Below are positions 8,278-32,000 of a stretch of DNA of 32,000 bases, in pieces. Location: the NCBI GenBank assembly GCA_041659445.1, contig JBAZYG010000001.1:1-32000 (forward strand), read 5' to 3'. Source of the stretch: Candidatus Saccharimonadota bacterium (GTDB lineage Archaea; Nanobdellota; Nanobdellia; Pacearchaeales; GW2011-AR1). The notes under the pieces were generated by a model, which did not search any database, was not told the origin of the DNA, and worked only from the letters and a program-made list of their open reading frames with translations. The position numbers and the translations under genes are program-made. Each line of letters starts with the position of its first letter. Positions within the stretch are counted from its first letter, which is position 1.

Positions 8278-10137
8278 ATGGTTATGTTAACAAGAAAAAG
8301 AGGACAAGTTACAATTTTTGTGATTATTGCTTTGGTGTTAATTTTAGCTGTTGGAGGTTTTTTTTTAATTAAAAGTCAACTTCAAAAAAAGACAAGTTTT
8401 CCTGCTTTTGCCGAACCTATTGAAACAACTTTTTTAGATTGCTTAGAACAAAGAACATTAGACGGAATTTCAATTTTAGAAACCAATGGAGGTTCTCTTT
8501 ATTTTGATGATTTTGAAATTGGTTCAAGATACATGCCTTTTTCATCACATTTGAGTTTTATGGGAAATGAAATTCCTTATTGGTTTTATATTTCTGGAAA
8601 TAATATTCCAAGAGAAAATATTCCTACAAAAGAAAGTATGCAACAAGATTTAGAAAGATTTATTGAGAATAGTATTTCTAAATGTGATTTGACTTCATAT
8701 TATGATCAAGGATTTATTTTATCAAAAGGAGTTCCAGAAGCAACAGTTAAAATTAACGAAGGTTCAATTAATGTTGTTTTAAATATGGATTTAGAAATAT
8801 CTAAAGGTGCAGAAAATTATCTTATTAAAGAACATTCAGTAGAAGTTAAATCAAACTTGAAAAAATTATATGAAGATGCTGTTGATGTTTATAATTTTGA
8901 GCAAAAAGAATTTTTCTTAGAAAATTATTCTGTTGATTTTTTGAGATTGTATGCTCCTGTCGACGGAGTTGAAATTAGTTGTTCACCAAAAGTTTGGAGC
9001 GCAAGTAATGTTTCTGAAACTTTGAGAGATGCAGTAGAGCTAAACACTTTTGCTTTGAAAAATAAAGGAGATAAAAATGATTATTTTGCATTGAATTTGC
9101 CTGTTGAAAGTGAAGTTAGGTTTATTACATCAAAGACTTGGCCTTATTCTTTTGAAGTTTCACCTAACGAAGGAGATTCTTTAGTTGCAAAGCCTGTCGG
9201 AAATCAAGAAGGTTTGGGAGTTCTTGGATTTTGTTATGTCCCTTATCATTTTGTTTATAATTTTGCTTACCCTGTTTTAATTCAAGTTTTAGATGAGCAA
9301 ACAAATGAAGTTTTTCAATTCCCTGTTGCAGTTATTTTACATGGGAACAAACCAAGAGAATCCCTTGATGGGACTTCTTCTGCTCAAGAGTCATCTCAAG
9401 TTTGTGAATATGCAAATACTGAAGCAACAATAACTGTGAAAGATATAAATTCAAAACCAGTTAGCGTCGATGTTTCATATGAATGTTTTGTTTCTTCTAG
9501 TTGTTATCTTGGTCAAACTAATATTAACAATGGTAGTTTAACTGCACTTCTTCCACAATGTATCAATGGAAATTTTATTATTGAATCTCCTGATTATAAA
9601 AATCAAAAGATTATTTATTCAAGTGTTAATCCTGGAAGTTTAATTGTTTCTTTAGACAGAGAATATGAAAAAGAAGTTTCTCTTAAAATTGATGGGATAC
9701 CTTCAAGTAAAAATGCAGTAATTAGTTTTATTTCTTCAGATGGTGAATCTCAAACAATTGTTTATCCAGAATCTAATAAAATTAAATTAAGTTCTGGAAG
9801 TTATCAAATTAAAGTTTATGTTTATGAAAATTCTTCAATTAAATTAGGAGAAACTACAAGTCAACAATGTATTAAAGTTCCAACTGCTTTTGGAAGTATA
9901 ATTGGTATAGAAATAAATAGAAAAGAATGTTATGAAGTAAAAGTTCCAGAACAAATTATTTCAAATGTCCTTGCTGGTGGAGGAGTAACAAGTTATTATT
10001 TTGATGAAGAAGTTTTGTCTGGAAATAATGAGATTATAATCAATTCTCCAAATTTACCTACTCCTACAACAATCGAAGAATTACAGTTGAACTATATTTT
10101 ATATGAAAGTAATGGATTGGAGGTTTCAATTCAATGA
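8278..10137 (+). CDS. Secreted 619-aa protein with a type IV pilin-like (class III) signal peptide
   Basis: The N-terminus MVMLTRKRGQ|VTIFVIIALVLILAVGGFFLI has a basic stretch, then G-Q, then a ~20-aa hydrophobic helix. That is the archaeal prepilin-peptidase substrate pattern. A TATA-like ATATTTATATA lies ~25 nt upstream. The 3' end overlaps the next gene by ATGA. Confidence 0.7.
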   Translation: MVMLTRKRGQVTIFVIIALVLILAVGGFFLIKSQLQKKTSFPAFAEPIETTFLDCLEQRTLDGISILETNGGSLYFDDFEIGSRYMPFSSHLSFMGNEIPYWFYISGNNIPRENIPTKESMQQDLERFIENSISKCDLTSYYDQGFILSKGVPEATVKINEGSINVVLNMDLEISKGAENYLIKEHSVEVKSNLKKLYEDAVDVYNFEQKEFFLENYSVDFLRLYAPVDGVEISCSPKVWSASNVSETLRDAVELNTFALKNKGDKNDYFALNLPVESEVRFITSKTWPYSFEVSPNEGDSLVAKPVGNQEGLGVLGFCYVPYHFVYNFAYPVLIQVLDEQTNEVFQFPVAVILHGNKPRESLDGTSSAQESSQVCEYANTEATITVKDINSKPVSVDVSYECFVSSSCYLGQTNINNGSLTALLPQCINGNFIIESPDYKNQKIIYSSVNPGSLIVSLDREYEKEVSLKIDGIPSSKNAVISFISSDGESQTIVYPESNKIKLSSGSYQIKVYVYENSSIKLGETTSQQCIKVPTAFGSIIGIEINRKECYEVKVPEQIISNVLAGGGVTSYYFDEEVLSGNNEIIINSPNLPTPTTIEELQLNYILYESNGLEVSIQ

Positions 10138-13100
10138 TAAAAAATAAAAGCAAGAAATATTTTGCATTTTTTGCAATGTTTTTTTTAATTAGTATTTTTT
10201 TAATTTCTTTTTCTTTAGCTTCTTATACAGAGAGCAATATAAAATATTATTATGGTGGTTCTTCATTTTCAACTTCAAATATTGCAGATATTTATAATAC
10301 TGAATTATGCACAGAAGGAACAGATTTTATTTTGCAAATAGATCCTGCTGGTTGCACTCCTGCTGTTATAAGAAGTGATTTATTAGAAGAACAAAATGTT
10401 CCTGTATTTTGTCCAATTCGAGCAATTAAGGTAAATCCTCTAATTGACGTCGATGCGATTAGTTCTATGACTTTTTCAGGAGAATATTCTTCAAGTCAAG
10501 TAAGCACTGTTGGGTTTTATGGTTCTCGTTCTGCTTTAGGTTATAATGAAGAAATAAACTCTTTCAATTATCAAACTGTAGGATATGCTGTTATAATTTT
10601 AAGAAGTCAACCAAATGAATCTGCTCTTGAAAATTGTGAAAAAGAAACATTAGGAGAAGTTTGTTGGGTTGAAGGAAATCTTACTGCACTTATTTCTTAT
10701 GATATTGAAAATGCTTTTGGATTAAGAACCAGTCAATTTTATTTGCCTGTATTAAGCGACAGCGAATGGAATCTTCAAAAAAATAAATATTATTTTTGGG
10801 ATGCAAGAGGATATTTAAGAGCAGAAGAAATTGGCGATGATAGTGCAAAAATAACTATTTATTCAGATGTTTCAAAAACAACATTTGAAGGGAACACTGG
10901 TGAAAAAAGAAAAGTTGGAAGTGAAACATTAAATGTTGGAGAAAGTTCTGATGTATATTATCTTCCTGGTTTAGGGTGTTTTGCAAGTTTAAGATTAAAA
11001 TTAAAAGATATTCAAGGTATGGATACTTATGCAAATTTAAAAATAAATTCAGAATATTATAACGCTGTTGAAGGAGAATATTTTTTAGATAATAAATGTA
11101 GAGTTATAGATTTATCAAATGAAGGAATTAATCAAAGAGCAACAATAAAATGTAATGAAGATAGAGAAGAAGGTTCATTTAGTTTATTTGGTAGTTCAGG
11201 TACTTATAATTTAGAAGTTGTTCCAAGACTTTCAATAATTGTTGGAGAAAATGGGAATGATGTTCTTAAAAAAGTTCAAATAGGTGATTTATTATATAAT
11301 TCAGGTTCGAGATCTATTTACTTAGGTTATGCTAATGAAGTTTTTAATGATGAAAATCCCGATGGTGTTCTTAAAGCTTATTTAATTTCAATTACAGATT
11401 CTGAAGCAAAAAAATTGAAAGACCCTAATAAATTAGATGCAGATTTAATTCAATATGTTAAAGAAATTGTTGAAGGATTAAATGTTCAAGATAGAGAAGG
11501 TGTTTCAACTTTGGGAGATGCAGTTTCTAAAGGAATTAATTGGGTTTCTTCAGGTTTTAGAAAACAATGGGCTTCATTAATCGACGGAGATTCATATGCT
11601 ACTTTAGAAATGGGGCAAATAGAAGAATTTGAAGGAAAAGAATTTGAATTACTTAATTTTGCAGAAGGAGATAATTTTGATTTATATGACGATGTTCAGG
11701 CATATTATGACAAAGCAATTATAGATTATAATACTCTTATAGAAAATTATATTAATGAAAAATACCCAACAGATGCACAAAAAACACTTGCAGAACAAGC
11801 ATCTGAAAATAAAATACTTTTAGCAGATTATCTCAAGCAAAATTATGATGTGAGAGAGTTTTGTCAAGAATATCAATCTTATTATCCTAATTCTGAGATT
11901 CCAGAAATTTGCACAGACCTTGAAAGAAATTCAAATGAAGGAATTTCTGAAATGAGCGTTTTAATCGACGGAAGAGTAAAATCTATTTCTTTAGTTAGTG
12001 TTCATGAACCAACTTATAATGATTATGGTGTGGATTTATTAGTTAGAAATTCAGATGGAACAGTTAATGAATATTATTTGACAAAAAATAAGAAAATTTA
12101 TATCAATACTACAAGTGATGAATTTGTAAAGCTTCTTTCAATCGACGACAAAGAAACAGTTAAGATTCAAATTTCTGCAAATAAAAATGACCGTCTTTCA
12201 AAATCAGAAGATTTCTTTTTAGGAGATTATCAAACTATGAAAAAAGATGTTTCATATGAATTTGGAACTAATTATGTTTTTTCTGTTCAAGATATTAATT
12301 TAAGAGAATATGCAAAAGTTGAAGTTGTTCCAGATATAGAACATTCGCGTTCTGAAGCAAGTTTTAAATTTAAAATTGGTGTTGAAAAAAGAGGAATTCA
12401 ACTTTCTCCTGAAGTCACAAAAAATAAAATTGACTCTTTGAATAAAACTATAGAACAATGGACAAAGATTTCTGATGATTTAGGAAGTGTTATTACAACT
12501 ATGAAAAGCGCTTGTTTGCTTACAGGAAGTTATTTGACTGTTAAAAATCTTTTAGAAAATTCAGACGGAAAATCAATAGCAAGGCAAAATGTAATGCAAG
12601 GAGAAGGTGGCTGGAATGAAAGATGTGCTGATTTTGTTTCATCTGGAAAATATTCTTCTAAAGAAAAATGTTTTTTGGAAAATTCAGATCAAATTGAAAA
12701 AGATGTTGACGAATATTATCAAGCAATGTCTGAACAAAATGGGGAAATTAAAAAATTACAAGAGGAATATATAATTGATAAAGGATTTTTAGGAGAAACA
12801 AGAATTGATACTGATGCATTTTTAAAAAATTATTCTAATAAAGTTGGAGAAAGTTTAAGTGGAGATATAACTGATGAAGAAGGGAATACAATAAATTTAA
12901 ATGAATTTAGTAATCTTTTTACTTCTTCAAATGCTTCTGATTTAGGTTTGTATAATATAGAAGAAGTAAGAGAAATTGAATTGAATTATAATTTGTGGAA
13001 AGAAACAGGAAATGATATTTATCAGCAAAGATTATATCATGCAATTTATGATGTTAATGAAAACTCTTTAGAATATAAAAAAGTATTACAAGCACAATCT

Positions 13101-16100
13101 AGTGCAAACAGCGACGGTTTTGAAGGAATGAATTTTCCAGTTTATTCTGATAAAAATAAAAAACAAGAAACTTATCAAGGATTTGTAACAAAAAATTCTG
13201 GTTGGTGGGGAGATGCTGGAACTCTAATTCAAGGAATAACTTATAATGGAAAACAATATTATGTCACATTGAAGGATGTTGGAAATAATCAATATGTTAT
13301 AATTGATGTTTATGATTTAGATGGGATAAAAACTGATGAATATAATTACATAAAAGATAAATATTCTTATTTTAAGAGATATGATTCTTCAAGTTATCAA
13401 AATGAATATAAAAATTATGAAGTTAGATTTTATGAATCAGAACCTTATACTGGGTTACCTGCAATAATTCCTTTAAGTATTTCAAAAGGATGGTATGTTT
13501 ACATTGAGCAAGCACTTCCTTTTGCAGGAGAAATAGCAAGTTATGATTTATCTGGTGCAGTTAATAGTTATTGGCTTTGTAACGTCGGAGAAAATGGATT
13601 AGAAGAATTTAATTCAGGAATTAACGACGATATTTGTCAACTTATAAATAAAGGAACACACCAACCATATGACCAATTTTCAGGGCTTAGTGAAAAGGAG
13701 GCTTCAGAATTAGTGAATTTTGCAGAGTCAAGTATTGAATCTGTTTCAAGGCAATATGAAAGTGCTCTTAAATCTAGAAGAGTTAGCGTTGAATTAATTG
13801 AAGGTGGTTCCCCTAAAACAATTATAGTTGGAGAACCTGAAACAAATGTCCCTGGTTTTGAATGTAGTGATTACATGTCTGTTAAAGATTGTCAATTATT
13901 ATTTAATGTTTGTGACCCTGTTGTGTGTCCTAGTTCAAGATGTGATTTTGGAGGACAATATCCTGTAAAAGATGTTATTCAATCTGGAATTATTGGAAGT
14001 ATTGCTTTGTGTTTGCCAAATTATAAAGAAGGAATTTATATGCCTGTTTGTTTAACTGGTTTGAAATCTGGAATTGATAGTTGGCTTTCAGTTTCAAAAT
14101 CTTATCAAGATTGTTTGCAAACAAGTTTAGATAGTGGTGAAACTGTTGGAGTTTGCGACGAGATTAATAGTATTTATATGTGTGAATTTTTTTGGAGACA
14201 AGCATTGCCTTTAGCAAAATTAACTATTCCAAAAATAATAACTGCTTTAACAGGAGAAAATGTTAGAGGTGGAGGAGAATATTTGGGTCTTGAAAGTGCT
14301 TGGCAAAATGCACAAGACTCTGTCGATTATTTAACAGATTATTATGCAGTTAATACTTTTAATGCATTTAAATTTAGGGATACTGATCAAGTTGGAAGTG
14401 CAGTTTGTAAAAACTTTGTTTCTTTAACATATCCTGAAGGAGCAAGTTTGCTTGAATCTTTGACAACTCCTGATTCTCCTGCTCAATTTTATGGAAGGTT
14501 TGATGAAATTCCGTTGACAACTGCAACAAATCCTCCAATTTCTCAATATAAAGTTTATTATCATATTTATGCAGGAACTGATAGAGGTGCTTATTATCAG
14601 GTTTATCTTCGAGGAGAACTTGAAAGTTCATTTTATCAATCAGGTGTTGGAAGATTAATTAATTCTGGATATATTGCTAAAGGAGAATATGCAAGTGAGA
14701 CAAGAGATATTACTGGACCAGAAGGATTTACAGAATTATGTATAAACGTTAATGGTCAAGAAGAATGCGGTTTTGGAGAAGTCACAACTAGTTTTGCTTT
14801 TGATTATATAAAAGATCAATATTTGAAAGGACAAGTAACAGAAAGTAATATTACATCGCAAAAAGAATGTATTTCTGGAAGTGCAGATATTTACAGTTTG
14901 CTTAATCCAAATGTGCAAGAAGGAGTTGATAATTTAATTAATCCACAAATTTACAATAAAGGAATTACAAGAATTTGTGCAACAGATAACCCTGGAAGTT
15001 CTTCAGATATTTCTGTTGGTTCTTCTGATCAAAGATGGATTGAAGTTGGTTATTGCGACGATGTAAATGTTAAATGTTGGTTGGACACAGAAACACTTTC
15101 AGATGCATTTAATTTTGAAACAACTTCAAATCAAGCATTAGGAGAGGTTATTGATGATTATGTACAAACATTATTAAATAATAATTCAAATTACATAGAC
15201 TCAAATGAATTTAAAGAAGAGTTGTCTAAAATAGAAAATGTCGACGATCCTAAAGAAAAAATTAATCATATAAATACAATCCTTAATAAAATATTTTTCA
15301 ATAATGAAAAAGCTTATTTATACTTTTTACGAGGAGAAAATAATGGGCTTTTAGCAAAGGCTTATTTTTTTACTTTTACAGAACCTTTACAAGACCATGT
15401 TCAATCTTATTACAAAGATAATTATTATTGTGAAGATTTTAGTGTAGAAGAAAAGAAAGATTTAATTGAAGAAGAATTGGGAGAAGGTTCTACTAATAAT
15501 TTTACAGAATATCAAATTGAAACAACATTTCGTAATGAAGTGGAAATTCCTTTTATTGAAGATGTTTTTAATGCAAATGAAATAGATACTAGTAATTTAA
15601 CAACTGCACAAATTTATGATAAATATAGAAATGAATTTTGTGATACTTATGAAATAGAATATGAAGAACCATTTGAAAATCAATTTAAAGAAGTTTCTCC
15701 AAAATTTGAATTTGAAAATGGATTTAATTATAGAGGTAATTTGTGTTATCAATATGCTGATGGACAATGGTATTGGACAAAGAATTGTGATTCTGTAGGA
15801 GATATTGTAGTAAGTGGTATAACACCAACATTATTTTATCCTCAGATATATACTGTTGATTGGATTCCAACTTCAAGTATAATTAATCCTTATGGAAATG
15901 AACCAAGTGACGACGATGCTGTATTTATTCAACAATTAAATTCAGCGTCTATGGAAGAAGGTGTTGATTTACTTGTTAAAAGAACATTAGCAGATAATGA
16001 AAATTATACTTGGTTTTGGGGACTTTTCACTACTGGAAATTCTTTTGGAGATACAAAATTAATTACTAAAAATGTTGAATTAACTTCAGATGGGATTTTT

Positions 16101-17666
16101 TTAGTTGATACTGACGGATGGAGAGAAGAACTTGAATTTTATTTTAAAAAACCTTCTTCTGATTCTTATTCTTATTATTGGTATTGGAAATTTTCAGATC
16201 TTGGAGATGAAGGTGAAAATTGGATAAGAGTAACTGAAACTACTCATCCAAAAAAAACTTATGCTTCATTGACAACACTTGAAAAAAATATTTTAAATGG
16301 TTTGAATGGAATTGAATTTTTAAATGGGGCAAGATTTTTATTTTTAGAGGTTCAATCATTGCCTAGTTATGATGGGGGAAATGAATCTGCTATCAATATT
16401 ACAGAGAAAAATAAAGATTTGATAAAGGCAATGAAAGATGCTTCGGGATTAACGGGAAAAGCATATATTTCTATTGGAGGAAAAGATATTGAAGAAAATA
16501 TCGCTTTTGTTGATAAACTTTGTTCAGGTTATTATGTTGTAGATATTTCTGTTGAACAATGTGAAGATATTAAAGGACATAGTTCTAGTGCAAATGCATG
16601 GACTAATACTTGGAATGGCGTGGAAGAAATGTCTTTTGTTAAAAGTATTTTAATCTCGCTCAGCGACCAGACTTATGGAAAATGGATACATGAATCTGCA
16701 TTATTAGAAGTTGAAAATCTTAAAGAAGACGGGGGATATCTATCTTATGATGCTTATAATGATTTTGTTTTAGAATTGTATGACGACGGAGTTATTAATC
16801 AAGAATTTTATGAATTTCAAAAAGAGAAAGAACATTTAGAGAAAATAAATCTTTTGTATGATTATTTGACTAAAGGAAGCGTACCTATTGTTCTTACAGA
16901 TAAAGATTATCAATGCAAGGAATTAGGCGGGGAATGCAAATATACTTCTCTTTATAAATGTAGTAAATCATGGGTAACAGGTAAATGTTTGGCTGATCAA
17001 AGTAGTGATTATTTATGTTGTACAGGAATAACAAGTGAAAAAGATTTTGATTTTGATTTTGTAAAAAGAGATCCTGCAGTTTTAACAGAGATGATAAAAT
17101 ATTTAAAAGATTCTGGAACAAAAGTAGTTAGTAGAAGTTGTGTTTGTGGAAGTGATAGTAGATGTAGCACATATGCAAAATTAATTTCTGAACAAACTGC
17201 TTCAAACGGACTTCCTGATGAATTATTGTTTTTATCTTTAATAATGCAAGAATCTTCTTGCATTTCTACAAGCGTTAGTTCTTCAGGTGCTATTGGATTA
17301 ACTCAAATTATGCCGTCGACATTCAAAGATTTTTGTGCAGGAAAATCTGGATTTGAATTTATCAATGATGTTTCTCAAATTAAAAATGATCCTCAAGCTC
17401 AATTAAAATGTGGGGCAATTATTTTTAGAGGAAAATATAATTCTTATAAAAATGGGTTGAGTTCTACCACAATTTCAAAGTATTGTAGTAATGTTGCTTT
17501 AATTAATAAATATGCAAGTTATACTGACTGGGATGCTGCTTTAAGAGGATATAATGGTTGGGGTTGTACAACTGGTGCAGATACGGAGTATGTTGAAAAT
17601 GTCATGACAAGATATAATTCTCTTGTTTCAATTTATGAAGAAAAACCTTGGGAAAGTGTTGCTTAA
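10134..17666 (+). CDS. Giant (2510 aa) secreted or membrane-anchored protein with a Cys-rich central module, a C-terminal Cys-knot-like module and an SLT lytic-transglycosylase domain
   Basis: Uninterrupted ORF. A GGAGGT SD at 10119-10124 lies 9 nt upstream of the ATG, inside the upstream gene. N-terminal signal/anchor FAFFAMFFLISIFLISFSLA. The C-terminal motifs are listed under the SLT feature. Confidence 0.85.
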   Translation: MIKNKSKKYFAFFAMFFLISIFLISFSLASYTESNIKYYYGGSSFSTSNIADIYNTELCTEGTDFILQIDPAGCTPAVIRSDLLEEQNVPVFCPIRAIKVNPLIDVDAISSMTFSGEYSSSQVSTVGFYGSRSALGYNEEINSFNYQTVGYAVIILRSQPNESALENCEKETLGEVCWVEGNLTALISYDIENAFGLRTSQFYLPVLSDSEWNLQKNKYYFWDARGYLRAEEIGDDSAKITIYSDVSKTTFEGNTGEKRKVGSETLNVGESSDVYYLPGLGCFASLRLKLKDIQGMDTYANLKINSEYYNAVEGEYFLDNKCRVIDLSNEGINQRATIKCNEDREEGSFSLFGSSGTYNLEVVPRLSIIVGENGNDVLKKVQIGDLLYNSGSRSIYLGYANEVFNDENPDGVLKAYLISITDSEAKKLKDPNKLDADLIQYVKEIVEGLNVQDREGVSTLGDAVSKGINWVSSGFRKQWASLIDGDSYATLEMGQIEEFEGKEFELLNFAEGDNFDLYDDVQAYYDKAIIDYNTLIENYINEKYPTDAQKTLAEQASENKILLADYLKQNYDVREFCQEYQSYYPNSEIPEICTDLERNSNEGISEMSVLIDGRVKSISLVSVHEPTYNDYGVDLLVRNSDGTVNEYYLTKNKKIYINTTSDEFVKLLSIDDKETVKIQISANKNDRLSKSEDFFLGDYQTMKKDVSYEFGTNYVFSVQDINLREYAKVEVVPDIEHSRSEASFKFKIGVEKRGIQLSPEVTKNKIDSLNKTIEQWTKISDDLGSVITTMKSACLLTGSYLTVKNLLENSDGKSIARQNVMQGEGGWNERCADFVSSGKYSSKEKCFLENSDQIEKDVDEYYQAMSEQNGEIKKLQEEYIIDKGFLGETRIDTDAFLKNYSNKVGESLSGDITDEEGNTINLNEFSNLFTSSNASDLGLYNIEEVREIELNYNLWKETGNDIYQQRLYHAIYDVNENSLEYKKVLQAQSSANSDGFEGMNFPVYSDKNKKQETYQGFVTKNSGWWGDAGTLIQGITYNGKQYYVTLKDVGNNQYVIIDVYDLDGIKTDEYNYIKDKYSYFKRYDSSSYQNEYKNYEVRFYESEPYTGLPAIIPLSISKGWYVYIEQALPFAGEIASYDLSGAVNSYWLCNVGENGLEEFNSGINDDICQLINKGTHQPYDQFSGLSEKEASELVNFAESSIESVSRQYESALKSRRVSVELIEGGSPKTIIVGEPETNVPGFECSDYMSVKDCQLLFNVCDPVVCPSSRCDFGGQYPVKDVIQSGIIGSIALCLPNYKEGIYMPVCLTGLKSGIDSWLSVSKSYQDCLQTSLDSGETVGVCDEINSIYMCEFFWRQALPLAKLTIPKIITALTGENVRGGGEYLGLESAWQNAQDSVDYLTDYYAVNTFNAFKFRDTDQVGSAVCKNFVSLTYPEGASLLESLTTPDSPAQFYGRFDEIPLTTATNPPISQYKVYYHIYAGTDRGAYYQVYLRGELESSFYQSGVGRLINSGYIAKGEYASETRDITGPEGFTELCINVNGQEECGFGEVTTSFAFDYIKDQYLKGQVTESNITSQKECISGSADIYSLLNPNVQEGVDNLINPQIYNKGITRICATDNPGSSSDISVGSSDQRWIEVGYCDDVNVKCWLDTETLSDAFNFETTSNQALGEVIDDYVQTLLNNNSNYIDSNEFKEELSKIENVDDPKEKINHINTILNKIFFNNEKAYLYFLRGENNGLLAKAYFFTFTEPLQDHVQSYYKDNYYCEDFSVEEKKDLIEEELGEGSTNNFTEYQIETTFRNEVEIPFIEDVFNANEIDTSNLTTAQIYDKYRNEFCDTYEIEYEEPFENQFKEVSPKFEFENGFNYRGNLCYQYADGQWYWTKNCDSVGDIVVSGITPTLFYPQIYTVDWIPTSSIINPYGNEPSDDDAVFIQQLNSASMEEGVDLLVKRTLADNENYTWFWGLFTTGNSFGDTKLITKNVELTSDGIFLVDTDGWREELEFYFKKPSSDSYSYYWYWKFSDLGDEGENWIRVTETTHPKKTYASLTTLEKNILNGLNGIEFLNGARFLFLEVQSLPSYDGGNESAINITEKNKDLIKAMKDASGLTGKAYISIGGKDIEENIAFVDKLCSGYYVVDISVEQCEDIKGHSSSANAWTNTWNGVEEMSFVKSILISLSDQTYGKWIHESALLEVENLKEDGGYLSYDAYNDFVLELYDDGVINQEFYEFQKEKEHLEKINLLYDYLTKGSVPIVLTDKDYQCKELGGECKYTSLYKCSKSWVTGKCLADQSSDYLCCTGITSEKDFDFDFVKRDPAVLTEMIKYLKDSGTKVVSRSCVCGSDSRCSTYAKLISEQTASNGLPDELLFLSLIMQESSCISTSVSSSGAIGLTQIMPSTFKDFCAGKSGFEFINDVSQIKNDPQAQLKCGAIIFRGKYNSYKNGLSSTTISKYCSNVALINKYASYTDWDAALRGYNGWGCTTGADTEYVENVMTRYNSLVSIYEEKPWESVA
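17160..17630 (+). other. SLT / GH23 lytic-transglycosylase (goose-lysozyme-like) domain at the C-terminus of the giant protein
   Basis: LFLSLIMQESSC (catalytic Glu-Ser; Glu codon at 17250-17252), GAIGLTQIMPSTF (GLxQ motif) and ALRGYNGWG (AYNxG-type motif). Order and spacing match SLT domain 1 enzymes. Confidence 0.75.
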
Positions 17667-23255: not shown

Positions 23256-23816
23256 ATGAAAAAAACAATATATTTAGTTCATGGATGGGGTGGAAGTGAT
23301 TCTAATGAAGGTTGGTTTGGTTGGTTAAAAAAAGAACTTCCAAAAAAAGGATTTGAAGTAGTTTCTTTTAACATGCCTAATAGTGATGAACCTAAAATTG
23401 AAGAATGGGTTGGATATCTTGAAAAAAATATTTCTTTAGACGACATCAACGAAAATACTTATTTTGTGGGGCATAGTATTGGATGTCAAACAATAATTCG
23501 ACTTTTGGAAAAATTGCATAAACATAAAAAAATTGCAGGTTGCGTTTTTGTTGCAGGTTGGTTTGATTTAATTAATCTTGAACCTGAAGAAATGGAAATA
23601 GCTCATCCTTGGATAAATAATAAAATTGATTTTGAAAGAGCTCTTGATCATTGTAATAATTTTTTAGCAATTTTTTCAGACAATGATCCTTTTGTGCATT
23701 TAGATGAAGTTAAAAAATTTAAAAATGATTTGAATGCAAAAACAATTATTAAACACCATGAAGAGCATTTTAATTTAACAGAAAAAATTCCAGAAATTTT
23801 AAAATTTATAAAATGA
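23256..23816 (+). CDS. YdeN/RBBP9-like serine hydrolase (alpha/beta fold)
   Basis: [17 protein letters not shown] (nucleophile elbow), FSDNDPFV (Asp) and HHEEHF (His); ~185 aa. Starts 11 nt after tRNA-Cys. Confidence 0.65.
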
Positions 23817-24229
23817 CAAAAGTTTATTCAAAAAAAATAGTTGTGAATACAAAAAATAAAATTGATTTTGTTAATATAACAAATGAAGTTAAGAGAGCTG
23901 TCCAAGAATCGGGGATTCAAGATGGAATTGTTTTAGTCAATTCAATGCACATTACTTCAAGTGTTTTTATAAATGATAATGAAGCAGGTTTATTAAGAGA
24001 TTTTAAAAATTGGTTAGAAGAGCTTGCTCCTCAAGAGAGAAGTTATTTTCATAATCAAACTGGTGAACACAATGGATTTGCTCATTTGTGGAGAACTATA
24101 ATGGGACGAGAAACAGTTATTGCAATTAGTGATTGGGAATTGGATTTAGGGCCTTATGAAGAAGTTTTTTATGGTGAATTTGATGGGCAAAGAGATAAAA
24201 AAATTTTATTTAAAGTAATTGGGGAGTAA
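23813..24229 (+). CDS. YjbQ/UPF0047 family protein (secondary thiamine-phosphate synthase-like)
   Basis: [20 protein letters not shown]..., [20 protein letters not shown] and [18 protein letters not shown] follow the UPF0047 pattern. ATGA overlap with the previous gene. Confidence 0.75.
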
Positions 24230-24312: not shown

Positions 24313-26010
24313 ATGGCATTTATTGTTAAAAAGAAAATTTCAGGAAAAGATTATTATTACTTAAATGAAAACAAAAGAGAAGAAGGAAAAGTAAAAACAA
24401 AAACACTTGCATATTTAGGAAAAAATAAAAAAGTTGCACAAGAAAAAATGAAAAAAGTTTTGACAGAAATTGAAAGAGAAAAAGAAATAACAATTAAGAA
24501 TACATTCAAAAATGAAATAAAAGATTCTGAAAAATCAAAAGAAAAAAATAAAAATTCAATTTCAAATATAAAACCAATTTCAATTGAAGAGTTAACAATG
24601 TTTTGCAAAAGAAAAGGATTTGTTTATCCTTCTTCAGAAATTTATGGTGGACTTGCGGGTTTTTGGGATTTTGGTCCTTTAGGTGTAGAATTATTAAATA
24701 ACATAAAAAAAGATTGGTGGAATTATTTTGTTTCTTCAAGAAATGATATAGTCGGTGTTGAAGCAAGTGTGATAAGTCATCCTCGAGTATGGGTTGCATC
24801 TGGTCATGTTGCAAATTTTACAGATGTTTTTGTCAAATGTAAAAAATGCGGAAAAACAAATAAAATAGACGAATCTGAGTTGGAAAAAGTAAAATGCATT
24901 TTTTGTAATGGCGATTATGAAAATTTAGGGAAATTTAATTTAATGTTTGAAACAAAAGTTGGTGCTTATGAACCAATGAATGTTTATTTAAGAGGAGAAA
25001 CTGCACAAGGAATGTTTATTAATTTTAAATTAGTTCAACAAACTTCAAGAATGCAATTACCTTTTGGTATTGCTCAGATTGGAAGATGTTTTAGAAATGA
25101 AATTGCTCCAAGAGATTTTTTATTTAGAAGCAGAGAATTTCATATTGGTGAATTTGAATTTTTTATAAATCCTGAAGAGAAAAAATGTTCTTTGTTATCG
25201 GATAAACAATTAAAATTGAAAATTAAATTTCTTGATTCTGAAAATCAAAAAAATGGAAATAATATTTTGAGAGAAATAACAATTGAAGAGATGATAAAAG
25301 AAAGAAGATTAGAAGAATGGCATGCTTATTGGTTAGCTGAGCAAATTTTATGGTTTAATTCAATTGGATTAACAGAAATAAAAATTCGAGAACATACTAA
25401 AGAGGAATTATCTCATTATAGCTCTGCAACATTTGATATTGATTATGAATATGTTTTTGGTAGCAAAGAAATTGCAGGCAATGCGAATCGTGGTCAATAT
25501 GATTTAACTCAACATGAAAAGGAAAGTAAACAATCAATGGAAATTTTTGATGAAAAGTATAAAAATAAAATAATTCCTAAAGTTATTGAACCTACTTTTG
25601 GAATTGAAAGAATTTTTTTGGGAATTTTAACAAAAGCATATTTTTACGACGATAAAAGACAAAATATTGTTTTAAAACTTCCTGCAAAACTTGCACCAAT
25701 AAAGATTGCTATTTTTCCTTTAGTTAGAAATAATCCTGAAATAATGAAATTATCCAATGAAATTTATGAAATTTTAAGAAAAGATTTTAATGTAGAATAT
25801 GATGAATCTGGTTCAATAGGTAGAAGATATGCTCGTAATGATGAAATTGGAACTCCGTTTTGTGTTACAATTGATGAGGAAAGTTTGAAAAAAAAAGATG
25901 TTACTATTAGAGATAGAGATACAACAAAACAAATAAGAATTAAAATAAAAGATTTGAAAAATATTCTAAAAGAATTTATTGACGGTAAAAAGGAATTTAA
26001 TGAAATTTAA
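24313..26010 (+). CDS. glyS: Glycyl-tRNA synthetase (archaeal/eukaryotic alpha2 type) with a 95-aa Lys-rich N-terminal extension
   Basis: KRKGFVYPSSEIYGGLAGFWDFGPLGVELLNNIKKDWW, FNLMFETKVG, YLRGETAQGMF, RCFRNEIAPR, EPTFGIERIF. A C-terminal anticodon-binding-like segment is present (APIKIAIFPL...GRRYARNDEIGTPFCVTID). Confidence 0.9.
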   Translation: MAFIVKKKISGKDYYYLNENKREEGKVKTKTLAYLGKNKKVAQEKMKKVLTEIEREKEITIKNTFKNEIKDSEKSKEKNKNSISNIKPISIEELTMFCKRKGFVYPSSEIYGGLAGFWDFGPLGVELLNNIKKDWWNYFVSSRNDIVGVEASVISHPRVWVASGHVANFTDVFVKCKKCGKTNKIDESELEKVKCIFCNGDYENLGKFNLMFETKVGAYEPMNVYLRGETAQGMFINFKLVQQTSRMQLPFGIAQIGRCFRNEIAPRDFLFRSREFHIGEFEFFINPEEKKCSLLSDKQLKLKIKFLDSENQKNGNNILREITIEEMIKERRLEEWHAYWLAEQILWFNSIGLTEIKIREHTKEELSHYSSATFDIDYEYVFGSKEIAGNANRGQYDLTQHEKESKQSMEIFDEKYKNKIIPKVIEPTFGIERIFLGILTKAYFYDDKRQNIVLKLPAKLAPIKIAIFPLVRNNPEIMKLSNEIYEILRKDFNVEYDESGSIGRRYARNDEIGTPFCVTIDEESLKKKDVTIRDRDTTKQIRIKIKDLKNILKEFIDGKKEFNEI

Positions 26011-26234: not shown

Positions 26235-26585
26235 ATGGAGGATTGTATTTTTTGTAAAATGTCTCGAGGAGAGATTTTATGCAAAAAAGTTTATGAAAAT
26301 GATAATTTTTTTTCTATTTTTGATATAAATCCGCGAAGTTTGGGGCATTCTTTAGTTATTTCTAAAAAACATTTTAATAATATTTTAGAGCTTCCTTTAA
26401 CATCTTGTCAAGAATTATTAGATTGTATAAAAAATACATCTTTAATTGTTTTAAAAGAAAAAAATGCTACGGGCTTTAATGTCCTTGTAAACACATTTAA
26501 GTCAGCAGATCAAGCTATAAATCATCTTCATGTCCATATTATTCCACGTAGAGAAAATGATAAATTAAGGCTTAATGATAATTAA
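26235..26585 (+). CDS. HIT-family (histidine triad) nucleotide hydrolase/transferase
   Basis: CIFCKM..GE, GHSLVISKKH and the NHLHVHIIPR histidine triad. Confidence 0.85.
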   Translation: MEDCIFCKMSRGEILCKKVYENDNFFSIFDINPRSLGHSLVISKKHFNNILELPLTSCQELLDCIKNTSLIVLKEKNATGFNVLVNTFKSADQAINHLHVHIIPRRENDKLRLNDN

Positions 26586-29175: not shown

Positions 29176-32000
29176 ATGGTTATCTATCATGAACTTAATT
29201 TTCAAAAAATTGAGCAAAAGTGGCAGAAGAAATGGGAAGAGAAAAAAATCTTTGAAGTCAATGAAAATTTTAAAAAGCCCAAGTTTTACAATCTTGAAAT
29301 GTTTCCTTATCCTTCTGCATCTGGTTTGCATATAGGGCATGCTTTGAATTATACTATTGGAGATATTTATGCTAGATTTAAGAGAATGCAGGGATTCAAT
29401 GTTCTTTATCCAATGGGTTATGATGCTTTGGGACTTCCTGCAGAAAATGCAGCAATAAAAGATAAAACTCATCCTGAAGATTATACTAAAAAATCAACTA
29501 CAAATTTTATGAAGCAACAAAAAATGCTTGGTTTGAGTTATGATTGGTCAAGGCTCATAAATACTTCTGATTCAGATTATTACAAATGGGACCAGTGGAT
29601 TTTTCTTAAAATGCTTGAAAAAGGAATTGCTTATAAAAAAAGTGCATCTGTTAATTGGTGTCCTTCTTGTAAAACTGTTTTAGCTAATGAACAAGCACAA
29701 GGGGGAATATGCGAAAGATGTAAAACAACTTTGGAAATTAAAAATTTAGCACAATGGTTTTTTAAGATAACAAATTATGCAGAAGAACTTTTTGATAAAA
29801 TTGATTCTTTGGATTGGCCTGCACGAACAAAAGCAATGCAGAAAAATTGGATTGGAAAATCTTATGGAACTGAAATTGATTTTGAAATTTCAAAAGAGAA
29901 TAAAATTTCGAACGTTATAGTTGTTCATGGAGGAGATTTAGGAGAGAAAGATAATTCTTATTTTAAACATTGGATGCCTTGGTTAAAAAAGAAATTAAAC
30001 GAAAATAAAATTCATTCAGAATTTCCTTTAATGCCTGTTGATGTTAAAACAACTTATAATGACTGGAAAAAAATATTTGATAAGTTTGAAATTAATGATG
30101 AAAGTATTTTAATTGGTCATAGTAGGGGCACTGCTTTTTTGGTAAAATGGTTGGGAGAAACTAAAAAGAAAGTTAAAAAATTAATTCTTGTTGCTCCTTG
30201 GAAATTTGCAGATAAAAAACATAAAGAAACTTTTTATGATTTTAAAATTGATAATGAAATTAAAAATAGAATTAATGAAATAATAATTTTTACTTCAAAC
30301 GATGAAGAAAAAGATGGAAAAAACAGTGTAAAAATTTTTTATGATTCTTTAGGCGGAAAAAAAATTGAATTAAAAAATCACGGACATTTTACTTTAGAAG
30401 ATATGAAAACTGAAGAATTTCCTGAATTATTGAATGAAATTATAAAAAATCAGAAATGGCCAATTTTTACAACTCGTCCTGATACTATTTTTGGAGTTAC
30501 TTTTTTAGTTATTTCAGCACAGCATCCTAGACTTTTTGAAATTGTTACTAAAGAACAAAAAAAAGAAGTTGAGAATTTTTTGAAAAAATTAAAATCTGTT
30601 AGTGAAAAAGAGTTGCATCGAATCGAAGTCTCAGGAACAGAGTTCCTGGACTCGTCCTCGGAAGACCGAGAACGAAAGGAAGGGGTTTTCACAGGAAGTT
30701 ATGCAATTAATCCTATTAATAATGAAAAAGTTCCAGTTTATGCTGGAAATTTTGTCGTCGCTGATTATGGCTGTGGAATGGTTATGGCTGTTCCTGCTCA
30801 TGATCAAAGAGATTTTGAATTTGCAAAAAAATATAATTTAAAAATAAATCCTGTGATAATTCCTAGGCAAGATTATATAGATAGTTCTATTTTTAAATAC
30901 TCTAAGTTTATTCCAAAATATTCTAATAAGCATTTTAGATTACCTTTTATTACAAATGAAGAAGAAAGAGAGGCTTGGGATTTTTTAAATGATCTTACAA
31001 AGAAGATTAAGAAAGGAGAAATTTGTTATACTGATGAAGAAGGTATATTAATCAATTCCGATAAATTTAATAATATATTTCAAGACCCTGCGATTGTAGA
31101 AATTCCTTTGTTTTTACAAAAAAAAGGTTTGGCAAAACATAATGTTTGTCAATATAAATTAAGAGATTGGTTAATTTCGCGTCAGAGATATTGGGGAACA
31201 CCCATACCTATTGTTTATTGTGATAAATGTGGAATTGTTCCAGTTTTGGAAAAAGACTTGCCTGTTAAATTACCTAAAGAGGTAAAGTTTGGAAAAGGAA
31301 ATCCTTTAGAGACAAATGAAAAATGGATAAATACAAAGTGTCCTAAATGTAAAGGAAAGGCAAGAAGAGAAACAGATACAATGGATACTTTTGTAAATTC
31401 TTCTTGGTATTTTTTAAGATATTGTGATTTTAATAATTCTAAAAAAATATTCGACGAGAAAAAAGTGAAATATTGGATGCCTATTGATTTGTATATTGGT
31501 GGAGCAGAACATGCTTGTATGCATTTAATTTATTGCAGATTTTATACTAAATTTTTGAGAGACTTGGGTTTATTGAATTTTGATGAACCTGCTAAAAAAT
31601 TATTTCATCAGGGAATGTTGCACGGAGAAGATGGAGAAAAAATGAGTAAGTCAAGTGGAAATACTGTTGATCCTATTGATGTTATTAAAAAATATTCTGC
31701 TGATTCTTTGAGGTTAGCTCTTATGAGTTTTGCTTCTCCAGATTCAGATACTAATTGGGATGAAAATGTTTTAATTGGAAATTACAAATTTTTGAATAAA
31801 GTTTATAGTAAGTTTGAAAACATTAAATTTGAAAAATCAGACGCAAAAACAGAAAGCAAATTAAATCAAACAATAAAAAAAGTTTCAGAAAATATTGAAA
31901 ATTTAAAATATAATCTAGCAATAATTTCTCTTCGTTCTTTTTTTGAAGGTTTGCCTGAAAAAACAAGCAAAGATGTTATTGAGAAGTTCTTGAAACTTTT
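29176..32000 (+). CDS. leuS: Leucyl-tRNA synthetase, bacterial-type architecture, 3' partial (runs off the window), with an inserted hydrolase domain
   Basis: Not in the ORF track because there is no stop in the window. ATG at 29176 follows an in-frame TAA, and frame 1 is open to 32000. Motifs: FPYPSASGLHIGHALNY (HIGH), WCPSCKTVLANEQ..CERCK (Zn module), MQKNWIGKS, FTTRPDTIFG and MAVPAHDQRDFEFA (CP1 editing), LRDWLISRQRYWGTPIP, KMSKSSGN. Confidence 0.9.
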   Translation, partial: MVIYHELNFQKIEQKWQKKWEEKKIFEVNENFKKPKFYNLEMFPYPSASGLHIGHALNYTIGDIYARFKRMQGFNVLYPMGYDALGLPAENAAIKDKTHPEDYTKKSTTNFMKQQKMLGLSYDWSRLINTSDSDYYKWDQWIFLKMLEKGIAYKKSASVNWCPSCKTVLANEQAQGGICERCKTTLEIKNLAQWFFKITNYAEELFDKIDSLDWPARTKAMQKNWIGKSYGTEIDFEISKENKISNVIVVHGGDLGEKDNSYFKHWMPWLKKKLNENKIHSEFPLMPVDVKTTYNDWKKIFDKFEINDESILIGHSRGTAFLVKWLGETKKKVKKLILVAPWKFADKKHKETFYDFKIDNEIKNRINEIIIFTSNDEEKDGKNSVKIFYDSLGGKKIELKNHGHFTLEDMKTEEFPELLNEIIKNQKWPIFTTRPDTIFGVTFLVISAQHPRLFEIVTKEQKKEVENFLKKLKSVSEKELHRIEVSGTEFLDSSSEDRERKEGVFTGSYAINPINNEKVPVYAGNFVVADYGCGMVMAVPAHDQRDFEFAKKYNLKINPVIIPRQDYIDSSIFKYSKFIPKYSNKHFRLPFITNEEEREAWDFLNDLTKKIKKGEICYTDEEGILINSDKFNNIFQDPAIVEIPLFLQKKGLAKHNVCQYKLRDWLISRQRYWGTPIPIVYCDKCGIVPVLEKDLPVKLPKEVKFGKGNPLETNEKWINTKCPKCKGKARRETDTMDTFVNSSWYFLRYCDFNNSKKIFDEKKVKYWMPIDLYIGGAEHACMHLIYCRFYTKFLRDLGLLNFDEPAKKLFHQGMLHGEDGEKMSKSSGNTVDPIDVIKKYSADSLRLALMSFASPDSDTNWDENVLIGNYKFLNKVYSKFENIKFEKSDAKTESKLNQTIKKVSENIENLKYNLAIISLRSFFEGLPEKTSKDVIEKFLKL
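29890..30455 (+). other. In-frame ~185-aa YdeN/RBBP9-like alpha/beta serine-hydrolase domain inserted in LeuRS just before the CP1 editing domain
   Basis: VIVVHGG, ILIGHSRGTAF (Ser codon 30121-30123), LILVAPW, IIFTSNDEEKDG and KNHGHF, in the same order as in the stand-alone gene 23256-23816. Flanked by NWIGKSYGTEIDFEI and WPIFTTRPDT. Confidence 0.7.
30615..30690 (+). other. GC-rich island with two adjacent stable hairpins inside the LeuRS coding sequence
   Basis: Hairpin 1 (30624-30654): 13 bp with two 1-nt bulges, core CAGGAAC-AGA-GTTCCTG. Hairpin 2 (30657-30670): CTCGG-AAGA-CCGAG. Codons here (CGA x3, CTG, GAC, TCG x2, TCC, GTC, ATC) are atypical for this AT3-biased genome. Confidence 0.6.

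Follow-up and report, generated by a model that had tools for sequence, protein, structure and literature searches.

The DNA analysed here, referred to as the window, is a stretch of 32,000 nucleotides (positions 1 to 32,000 of contig JBAZYG010000001.1, assembly GCA_041659445.1). At its 3' end it carries the gene for a bacterial-type leucyl-tRNA synthetase (LeuRS), and nested inside the CP1 editing domain of this enzyme is a complete serine hydrolase of the RBBP9/YdeN type, whose predicted catalytic serine, acid and histidine are intact and stand in the order of a triad. An earlier note on this DNA had read the gene as one continuous frame, and the 941 codons that lie in the window, starting at the ATG on the + strand, are indeed unbroken. 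The complete product has 1065 amino acids and matches at 100% an NCBI protein (MFA5952990.1, our P0121) from a 486-kb Pacearchaeota contig. Searched as a whole, it matches the NCBIfam model TIGR00396 (leuS_bact) with 862 bits against a cut-off of 548, the match being split into two stretches, and in Pfam the families tRNA-synt_1 and PF13603, the LeuRS editing domain (168 bits), flank a match to PF06821. The AlphaFold2 (AF2) model of the full-length protein has a predicted local distance difference test score (pLDDT) of 85.8 and a predicted template-modelling score (pTM) of 0.75, and it resembles the solved LeuRS of Thermus thermophilus, Neisseria gonorrhoeae and Escherichia coli (1H3N, 2BTE, 6YKS and 4AQ7) with target-normalised TM scores of 0.73-0.80. 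The NCBI label of P0121 is only 'class I tRNA ligase family protein [Candidatus Pacearchaeota archaeon]'. The insert-bearing relatives P0130, P0179, P0193, P0213 and P0216 are also named merely 'class I tRNA ligase family protein', and other insert-bearing relatives are named 'leucine--tRNA ligase'. This gap in annotation is likely the result of the equivalog match being split by the insertion.

Apart from the insertion the synthetase looks intact. All the motifs that the earlier note had listed for host and insert (VIVVHGG, GHSRG, FTSNDE, NHGHF, TTRPDT, AVPAHDQRD, HIGH and KMSKS) were located (Table 1); for the aspartate of HDQRD the role has been established in bacterial LeuRS. For comparison we used the 120 best LeuRS relatives, taken as 90%-identity clusters, a list that is biased towards insert-bearing sequences as the query carried the insert. 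The motifs HxGH, KMSKS, TTRxDT and HDxRD are intact in 120/120 of them, whether an insert is present or absent. Because the editing motifs are intact in all 120, the hydrolase is an addition to the CP1 site and not a replacement, and for the same reason we ruled out that it substitutes for a dead CP1 site. Upstream of leuS the window has an EndA gene, and so do the insert-less and module-bearing relatives whose loci were fetched; this shared neighbour argues that the window leuS and those of the relatives are orthologous housekeeping genes.

The borders of the insertion can be placed precisely. LeuRS relatives that lack it have about 824 amino acids and read ...GTEINFEI-NGEK-WPIFTTRPDT, with a turn of 4-5 residues between two strands. 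As only the short NGEK turn is present there, the extra segment is S238-K427, and the earlier note, which had placed the insert at 29890-30455, came within one codon of the borders defined by the alignment. At the DNA level, alignment with the closest leuS that lacks an insert (79% nucleotide identity) locates the indel to 29887-30441. The full-length AF2 model shows a folded alpha/beta domain between strands 228-239 and 426-432, and TTRPDT starts five residues past the last residue of the insert, with the four residues WPIF between them. The PF13603 profile begins before the insert and picks up again at profile position 20 after it. The profile thus spans both sides of the insert, and therefore the hydrolase is nested inside CP1, which is itself inserted in the catalytic domain. 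This bears out the proposal that an alpha/beta serine-hydrolase domain has been inserted in frame at the N-terminal edge of CP1. The insert has a GC content of 24%, compared with 30% for the rest of the gene; it is slightly more AT-rich, which is uninformative. No convincing flanking repeats were found at the insert in the window. We ruled out an intein-like element: the Pfam matches of the protein and of the insert include no Hint or intein family, the domain folds as an alpha/beta hydrolase, and the insertion falls in a variable surface loop and not in a conserved active-site motif. A virus-borne module was rejected as well, because no relatives of the module were found in the viral contig collection.

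CP1 has a second variable loop, here called site 2, as the first hairpin with the hydrolase is called site 1. In the window site 2 holds about 40 extra residues (Table 1). The full-length model has two lineage-specific stretches in CP1 with a pLDDT below 50, amino acids 484-498 (30625-30669) and 573-592 (30892-30951); the former is a 16-aa insert rich in Ser, Asp and Glu, and the latter is part of the site-2 expansion.

The family of the insert is clear. The segment 29890-30455, searched by itself with profile hidden Markov models, matches Ser_hydrolase (PF06821) with E = 2e-13 and 51.1 bits against a cut-off of 22, and 46.6 bits are reached when the whole protein is searched. Modelled alone with 109 homologues, the insert gave an AF2 model with a pLDDT of 91 and a pTM of 0.89, and its seven best Foldseek matches are all RBBP9 (2QS9, 7OEX, 9FCR) or YdeN (1UXO), with TM scores of 0.77-0.84 and E values of about 1e-9 to 1e-11. 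A profile search against the sequences of solved structures likewise found YdeN (1e-19) and RBBP9 (1e-14). Within this family the insert belongs to a subfamily that we call type B. Hundreds of free-standing proteins with a length of about 185 aa share 55-61% identity with the insert; they come from Pacearchaeota, Woesearchaeota, Nanoarchaeota and Patescibacteria. The subfamily comprises 1066 clusters at 50% identity with E ≤ 1e-3, and 297 with E ≤ 1e-10.

In 82 of the 120 LeuRS relatives the site-1 loop holds more than 100 residues, and in 80 of these 82 the extra segment is the hydrolase, always in a DPANN archaeon. The equivalent of Ser316, the predicted nucleophile, is found in 79/80 of the embedded hydrolases and in 116/116 free-standing relatives, and that of the predicted catalytic His404 in 80/80 and 116/116, respectively; both residues are also invariant in alignment A1. 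The catalytic residues have thus been retained in the embedded copies over the long term. The HG motif likely corresponds to the oxyanion-hole region, by analogy with the alpha/beta-hydrolase fold. The acid is less easily assigned. The column of Glu377 holds E or D in 77/82 site-1 segments and 114/116 free forms, while that of Asp376 holds D in 45 and N in 29, with Asn in about a third of the relatives. RBBP9 Asp138 falls on Glu377 in the profile alignment, and a register shifted by one residue is a possible alternative. The triad acid is thus probably Asp376 or Glu377, ambiguous by one alignment register, with Glu377 the near-invariant one in the subfamily. The earlier note had proposed a Ser-Asp-His triad; its Ser and His stand, as the counts above show, but the near-invariant acid is Glu377, and Asp376 is often Asn.

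Table 1. Features of the LeuRS gene, its inserted hydrolase and the second PF06821 gene of the window.
Feature	Position in product (aa)	Coordinates in window	Strand	Evidence or remark
Free-standing 'type A' (YdeN-like) PF06821 paralogue		23256..23816	+	PF06821 85 bits; 4-nt overlap with UPF0047/YjbQ gene
Bacterial-type leucyl-tRNA synthetase gene		29176..32000	+	ATG at 29176; gene continues past window end
HIGH, synthetic site	52-55	29329..29340	+	Motif scan; HxGH kept in 120/120 relatives
NWIGKS	224		+	Motif scan of the open reading frame
First strand of host hairpin (GTEIDFEI...), directly 5' of insert	228-239	29857..29892	+	AF2 strand; aligned to GTEINFEI in insert-less relatives
Inserted RBBP9/YdeN-family ('type B') alpha/beta serine-hydrolase domain, 190 aa	238-427	29887..30456	+	120-sequence alignment, DNA alignment, PF06821, AF2, Foldseek
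VIVVHGG, first beta-strand and HG motif	247	29914..29934	+	H and G kept in 79-80/82 site-1 segments and 113-114/116 free-standing relatives
GHSRG nucleophile elbow, predicted nucleophile Ser316	314	30115..30129	+	Conservation; aligned to RBBP9 Ser75
FTSNDE, predicted triad acid Asp376/Glu377	372	30289..30306	+	Conservation; profile alignment to RBBP9
NHGHF, predicted catalytic His404	401	30376..30390	+	Conservation; aligned to RBBP9 catalytic His
TTRPDT threonine-rich peptide, CP1 editing site	432-437	30469..30486	+	TTRxDT in 120/120 relatives; within WPIFTTRPDT (aa 428)
HDQRD, CP1 editing site, conserved Asp residues	542-546	30799..30813	+	HDxRD in 120/120 relatives; AVPAHDQRD at aa 538
Second variable CP1 loop ('site 2'), about 40 extra residues		30853..31011	+	Alignment; no recognisable domain or Pfam match; site lies about 15 residues after HDQRD
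KMSKS, synthetic site	822	31639..31653	+	Motif scan; intact in 120/120 relatives

The window derives from a metagenome-assembled genome, and it could be asked whether the architecture is an artefact of assembly or gene calling, or whether the insert is a decayed, non-catalytic spacer. Against this, the identical protein has been recorded from NCBI, JGI and ENA, on the 486-kb contig, and the same architecture is found in the 80 separate 90%-identity clusters, which come from NCBI, JGI, ENA and Logan assemblies with contigs of up to 710 kb. We also took the best 80 type-B loci in the GTDB species representatives (37 archaeal and 43 bacterial); 12 of these lie within a DPANN leuS frame, each in a different representative genome. 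A continuous frame, the conserved Ser and His, and the confidently folded domain in the full-length model argue in the same direction. We regard an artefact or a decayed spacer as extremely improbable, in effect refuted, and a misassembly or chimera was rejected on the strength of the three sources, the 80 clusters and the 12 representatives. The insertion is not a common part of ordinary LeuRS either: it is absent from the solved bacterial LeuRS structures and from the close relatives of 824 aa. Here the earlier note was right.

The type-B hydrolase has been linked to LeuRS repeatedly and in several ways. Site 1 is the usual place, as in the window. In P0216, P0228, L067, P0262 and P0327 the same hydrolase occupies site 2 and site 1 is empty, and in P0184 and P0315 a third LeuRS site, after KMSKS, is used in addition to a second hydrolase. 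A bacterial LeuRS (L062) has the hydrolase at site 1, although in the core it shares just 39-52% identity with the DPANN enzymes. Moreover, a separate hydrolase gene abuts or overlaps an insert-less leuS on the same strand at five loci, downstream of it in L013, L060 and L064 and upstream in L009 and L044. In the GTDB sample, 17 of the 37 archaeal loci are linked to leuS. Among the neighbours of the free-standing copies leuS is the commonest (5 loci), followed by NUDIX, His_Phos_1 and a second PF06821 gene with 3 each, and no other family recurs more than three times in this census of neighbours. Assuming about 25 free archaeal loci and about 600 genes per genome, the binomial probability of five leuS adjacencies under random adjacency is about 2e-8. 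Five adjacencies among about 25 free archaeal copies are therefore far beyond chance.

Any account of the function has to start from what is observed: a hydrolase fold whose catalytic residues are conserved, a host enzyme that is intact, an arrangement that recurs, and genomic linkage to leuS that has arisen in more than one form. We tentatively propose that the domain is an accessory hydrolase that is functionally coupled to LeuRS and acts on an aminoacyl ester or amide tied to LeuRS chemistry; its substrate and any action on tRNA are the conjectural parts of this proposal, and although it is the reading we prefer, we give it somewhat less than an even chance. Valacyclovir is the L-valyl ester of a nucleoside analogue, and the YbaK/INS editing domain of prolyl-tRNA synthetase (ProRS) is a separate protein in some species, while other species have it inserted or fused. 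Of the wider family of the insert, RBBP9 is the single member with a known biochemistry. It is a serine aminopeptidase that acts on N-terminal aromatic residues and needs their alpha-amine to be free (PMC8866121), and according to the title of Shenoy et al. 2020, as cited in PMC7730578, it activates valacyclovir. The mechanism might then be as follows. The type-B domain occurs free-standing, fused or inserted, and to fit a loop it must have its two ends close together. Like RBBP9, it would act on an alpha-aminoacyl ester or amide whose amino group is free. From its place five residues away from the threonines of the editing site, it could hydrolyse aminoacyl esters that LeuRS makes or releases, the leading candidates being the mischarged 3' end of tRNA-Leu and stray aminoacyl by-products. 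The outcome would be a second deacylation activity at CP1, mechanistically different in that it would use a Ser-His-acid triad. The interpretation of the earlier note is thus partly supported: a functional tie to LeuRS is likely, and the second hydrolytic module that it suggested, for proofreading or deacylation, is a candidate role. The embedded copies carry a slightly more positive net charge than the free ones (+1.5 compared with -0.1 per 100 aa), a difference that is too weak to support RNA binding. The partnership with NUDIX domains, described below, hints at a shared substrate or a clean-up role, where the hydrolase would act on aminoacyl esters and NUDIX on dinucleotide by-products, but this is speculation.

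Several findings weigh against such a coupling to LeuRS. The type-B hydrolase is also found inside UvrB (P0271, between SATPG..E and RPTGLLDP; also P0390 and P0392), inside the Der/EngA GTPase P0314, between its two GTPase domains, and inside the GT2 glycosyltransferase P0250. It is further fused to the C-terminus of YdjC (P0332), to type A hydrolases and to NUDIX (P0247, P0256, L065 and L085, stand-alone fusions of hydrolase and NUDIX in Patescibacteria). The two CP1 loops are also open to other cargo. NUDIX is present at site 2 in 11/120 LeuRS (P0126, P0141, P0148, P0154, P0180, P0184, P0198, P0208, P0224, P0229 and P0238), usually together with a site-1 hydrolase, and its Nudix box is intact in P0126 (GGIEENEEIEKAAEREVLEETGY). 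Besides NUDIX, at least three unrelated modules are found in these two loops. One of these, of about 115 aa with the motifs IEKS...WGKFFRVKVD...WY.DS.G...EYGR..G.P.EQLD, occupies site 1 of P0230 and site 2 of P0134, P0187 and P0209, with P0232 and P0179 also listed; it is unannotated and gave no match in Pfam or in a profile search against PDB sequences. Other unassigned modules occur in P0239, P0135 and P0152, those of the latter two measuring 94-129 aa and lying around site 2. The segments of P0230 and P0239 (about 125-136 aa) were considered as decayed hydrolases; for P0230 this was ruled out, as the segment is the unrelated module shared with P0134, P0187 and P0209, and that of P0239 is a different sequence with no family match. 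Modules come and go between close strains. P0230 and P0240 (L001:6718-7084 compared with L002) are syntenic alleles with 96.7% identical DNA, set apart by a clean in-frame indel of 357 nt at site 1, and only a weak 7-nt repeat is found at the polymorphic module in L001. Distances among inserts and among hosts show no more than a weak correlation (Mantel r = 0.12, p = 0.004), and the LeuRS core of the window groups with insert-less enzymes in a neighbour-joining tree without support values from a sample biased by bit score. Several residues that hardly change among free copies, e.g. the Trp of APW, are variable in many of the embedded ones, although the copy in the window retains them, and RBBP9 Glu108, the anchor of the alpha-amine, has no clearly conserved counterpart in the profile alignment. 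A relative, P0089, has an apparent membrane anchor or signal sequence, as judged by eye with no predictor run. Finally, 42/43 bacterial and 20/37 archaeal loci of the GTDB sample have no link to leuS.

Two side observations may be added on these hosts and alleles. The UvrB, Der, GT2 and YdjC cases, with 1-3 clusters each, show the domain to be a general insertion module. The L001 and L002 alleles (P0230 and P0240) have a further 129-aa insertion downstream of CP1, and P0142 is listed alongside them with a position of about 444.

Much of this would be expected if the hydrolase were an autonomous housekeeping or 'housecleaning' enzyme with a substrate unrelated to LeuRS, carried as a passenger in a tolerant loop of an essential, well-expressed gene of a tiny genome. 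It would then keep its own activity and give LeuRS no new property, and the CP1 loops would be hot spots since insertions are tolerated there. The occurrence of the module in UvrB, Der and GT2 and its fusions to YdjC and NUDIX, the NUDIX and other unrelated modules in the same two LeuRS loops, the presence or absence of a module between near-identical alleles, the weak correlation of insert and host phylogeny, the relaxed positions outside the triad, and the insert-less nearest relatives of the window LeuRS, with all motifs intact, are all in line with it. The 'moonlighting enzyme tethered to the synthetase' of the earlier note stays viable because of the UvrB, Der and GT2 insertions, the NUDIX and YdjC fusions, the unrelated modules in CP1 loops and the insert-less closest relatives. 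On the other hand, the non-LeuRS hosts are rare, with 3/120 of the best UvrB clusters and only single-member clusters for Der, GT2 and YdjC, and LeuRS is by far the commonest host (80/120 of the top LeuRS clusters). A passenger would not be predicted to abut insert-less leuS as a free gene at five loci, on either side, nor to have been inserted independently at three LeuRS sites and in an unrelated bacterial LeuRS. We consider this explanation a serious one, though on balance rather doubtful.

Other readings accept a tie to LeuRS but differ on what the domain does. DPANN archaea and Patescibacteria are small-genome symbionts with poor biosynthesis, and the enzyme could be an aminopeptidase or esterase that releases hydrophobic residues from the N-termini of peptides obtained by scavenging, or splits esters of amino acids, and so feeds leucine to LeuRS in an auxotrophic symbiont without contacting tRNA; LeuRS would be the favoured partner as the synthetase with the highest demand for its amino acid. 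The confinement of the family to DPANN and Patescibacteria, the linkage to leuS both as a fusion and as a neighbour, and the apparent anchor or signal sequence of P0089, which would suit peptide scavenging, are consistent with this, as is the free alpha-amine that the aminopeptidase RBBP9 requires (PMC8866121). However, the recurrent partnership with NUDIX and the use of internal CP1 loops over termini are left unexplained, and there is little obvious gain from channelling an amino acid that diffuses freely, so we think a leucine-supplying role unlikely. A broader version of the coupling that we prefer would make the CP1 domain of DPANN LeuRS an expandable platform for proofreading or clean-up, where portable hydrolases (the esterase, a NUDIX pyrophosphatase with its Nudix box intact, and other modules) sit in two loops by the editing pocket and act on the 3' end of aminoacyl-tRNA or on by-products derived from aminoacyl-adenylate. 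In a variant of this, the modules might destroy aminoacyl-nucleotide antibiotic mimics that are aimed at LeuRS. We hold this broader version to be improbable, to about the same degree as the supply of leucine.

With RBBP9 and YdeN (PF06821; 2QS9, 7OEX, 1UXO) the insert shares the fold, a length of about 190 aa, the GHSxG elbow and the order Ser-acid-His. It differs from them in that it is only about 20% identical, is nested within another enzyme and lacks a clear counterpart of Glu108. The RBBP9 structures are of the human protein, 7OEX having phenylalanine bound, and YdeN is from Bacillus subtilis. The subfamily of the insert is set apart by a consensus of its free-standing members such as HGCPS...GHSCGCAFLVRWLGETK...LILVAPW. 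The host, in turn, resembles the bacterial LeuRS of E. coli, T. thermophilus and N. gonorrhoeae in TIGR00396, HIGH, KMSKS, TTRPDT and HDQRD, and is unlike the solved enzymes in its 190-aa enzyme in the first CP1 hairpin, in about 40 extra residues at site 2 and in its archaeal host.

Domains that hydrolyse the products of synthetases are well known. YbaK/ProXp/INS together with ProRS, AlaX together with alanyl-tRNA synthetase, and the free-standing editing domains of threonyl-tRNA synthetase are proven aminoacyl-tRNA deacylases, with folds of their own. The parallel with YbaK/INS and ProRS is that one hydrolytic domain is free-standing, fused or inserted across lineages; here it is free, adjacent to leuS, or inserted at several sites. 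Unlike domains of the YbaK and AlaX kind, the insert is an alpha/beta hydrolase with a Ser-His-acid triad predicted from sequence conservation, and it is also found inside proteins outside translation. To our knowledge, no synthetase editing site with a classical Ser-His-acid esterase has been described. The isoleucyl-tRNA synthetase with an N-acetyltransferase domain (NF040702, ileS_w_GNAT, in the NCBIfam match list) is similar as a class I synthetase with an added catalytic domain, and different in both the synthetase and the domain, a comparison made by model name. Homocysteine thiolactone is a product of editing by class I synthetases. BPHL (valacyclovirase) is an alpha-amino-acid ester hydrolase that acts on aminoacyl esters of nucleoside analogues and also is a homocysteine thiolactonase (PMC4198189, PMC10261862). 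It is an alpha/beta serine hydrolase like the insert, of another alpha/beta-hydrolase family, and the likeness would lie in the possible chemistry only. In a 2026 survey, the PF13603 editing domain was always an insert and never a host (PMC13114784). In the window PF13603 hosts a nested hydrolase, and it is therefore a counter-example to that generalisation. The earlier note knew of no described LeuRS with this insertion, and we found no published description of a LeuRS-hydrolase architecture in open-access papers and bioRxiv. A synthetase with an added catalytic domain is already a known kind, and an esterase nested in LeuRS is a variant of it; that the variant represents a new type of editing module is a real possibility.

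The window encodes a second PF06821 protein, the free-standing hydrolase at 23256-23816. The earlier note had found its layout to match that of the insert. The two do belong to the same Pfam family, but they are only 26% identical and in different subfamilies, and the true free-standing counterparts of the insert are those that are 55-61% identical to it. For this reason the gene at 23256 was ruled out as the source of the insert. It belongs to a subfamily that we call type A and is 46% identical to the N-terminal half of P0024, a tandem protein of type A and type B. Such tandem fusions are also found in L045:1874-3073, P0382 and P0224, where the P0224 pair sits at LeuRS site 1, and they suggest that the two subfamilies work together. 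In the window the type-A gene and YjbQ (23256-24229) are followed by genes for glycyl-tRNA synthetase (24313-26010) and a HIT-family protein (26235-26585). At a syntenic locus of another Pacearchaeote (L003) a type-B hydrolase, P0057, occupies the same slot before YjbQ. The window also contains an open reading frame of 2510 aa on the + strand (10134-17666); at a comparable position upstream of TFIIB, L003 encodes a giant protein (more than 2242 aa) that includes an SLT (lytic transglycosylase) domain. The G+C content of 27% and the genes for TFIIB and a tRNA-splicing endonuclease in the window fit a DPANN archaeon.

Whichever explanation is right, the window provides a clear natural case of a domain within an inserted domain. 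The CP1 loops gain and lose whole enzyme modules between near-identical strains, which makes them useful for the study of multidomain assembly and as insertion points in engineering. If CP1 is indeed a platform of the broader kind, the hydrolase would be the first editing domain of any aminoacyl-tRNA synthetase of the alpha/beta-hydrolase type, with a serine nucleophile, and its free-standing relatives in DPANN and Patescibacteria would be a new family of trans-editing factors. If the domain deacylates tRNA or clears aminoacyl by-products, this would be a new chemical route in translational quality control, and a function would be found for a subfamily with about a thousand sequence clusters, spread over the major uncultured lineages DPANN and Patescibacteria.

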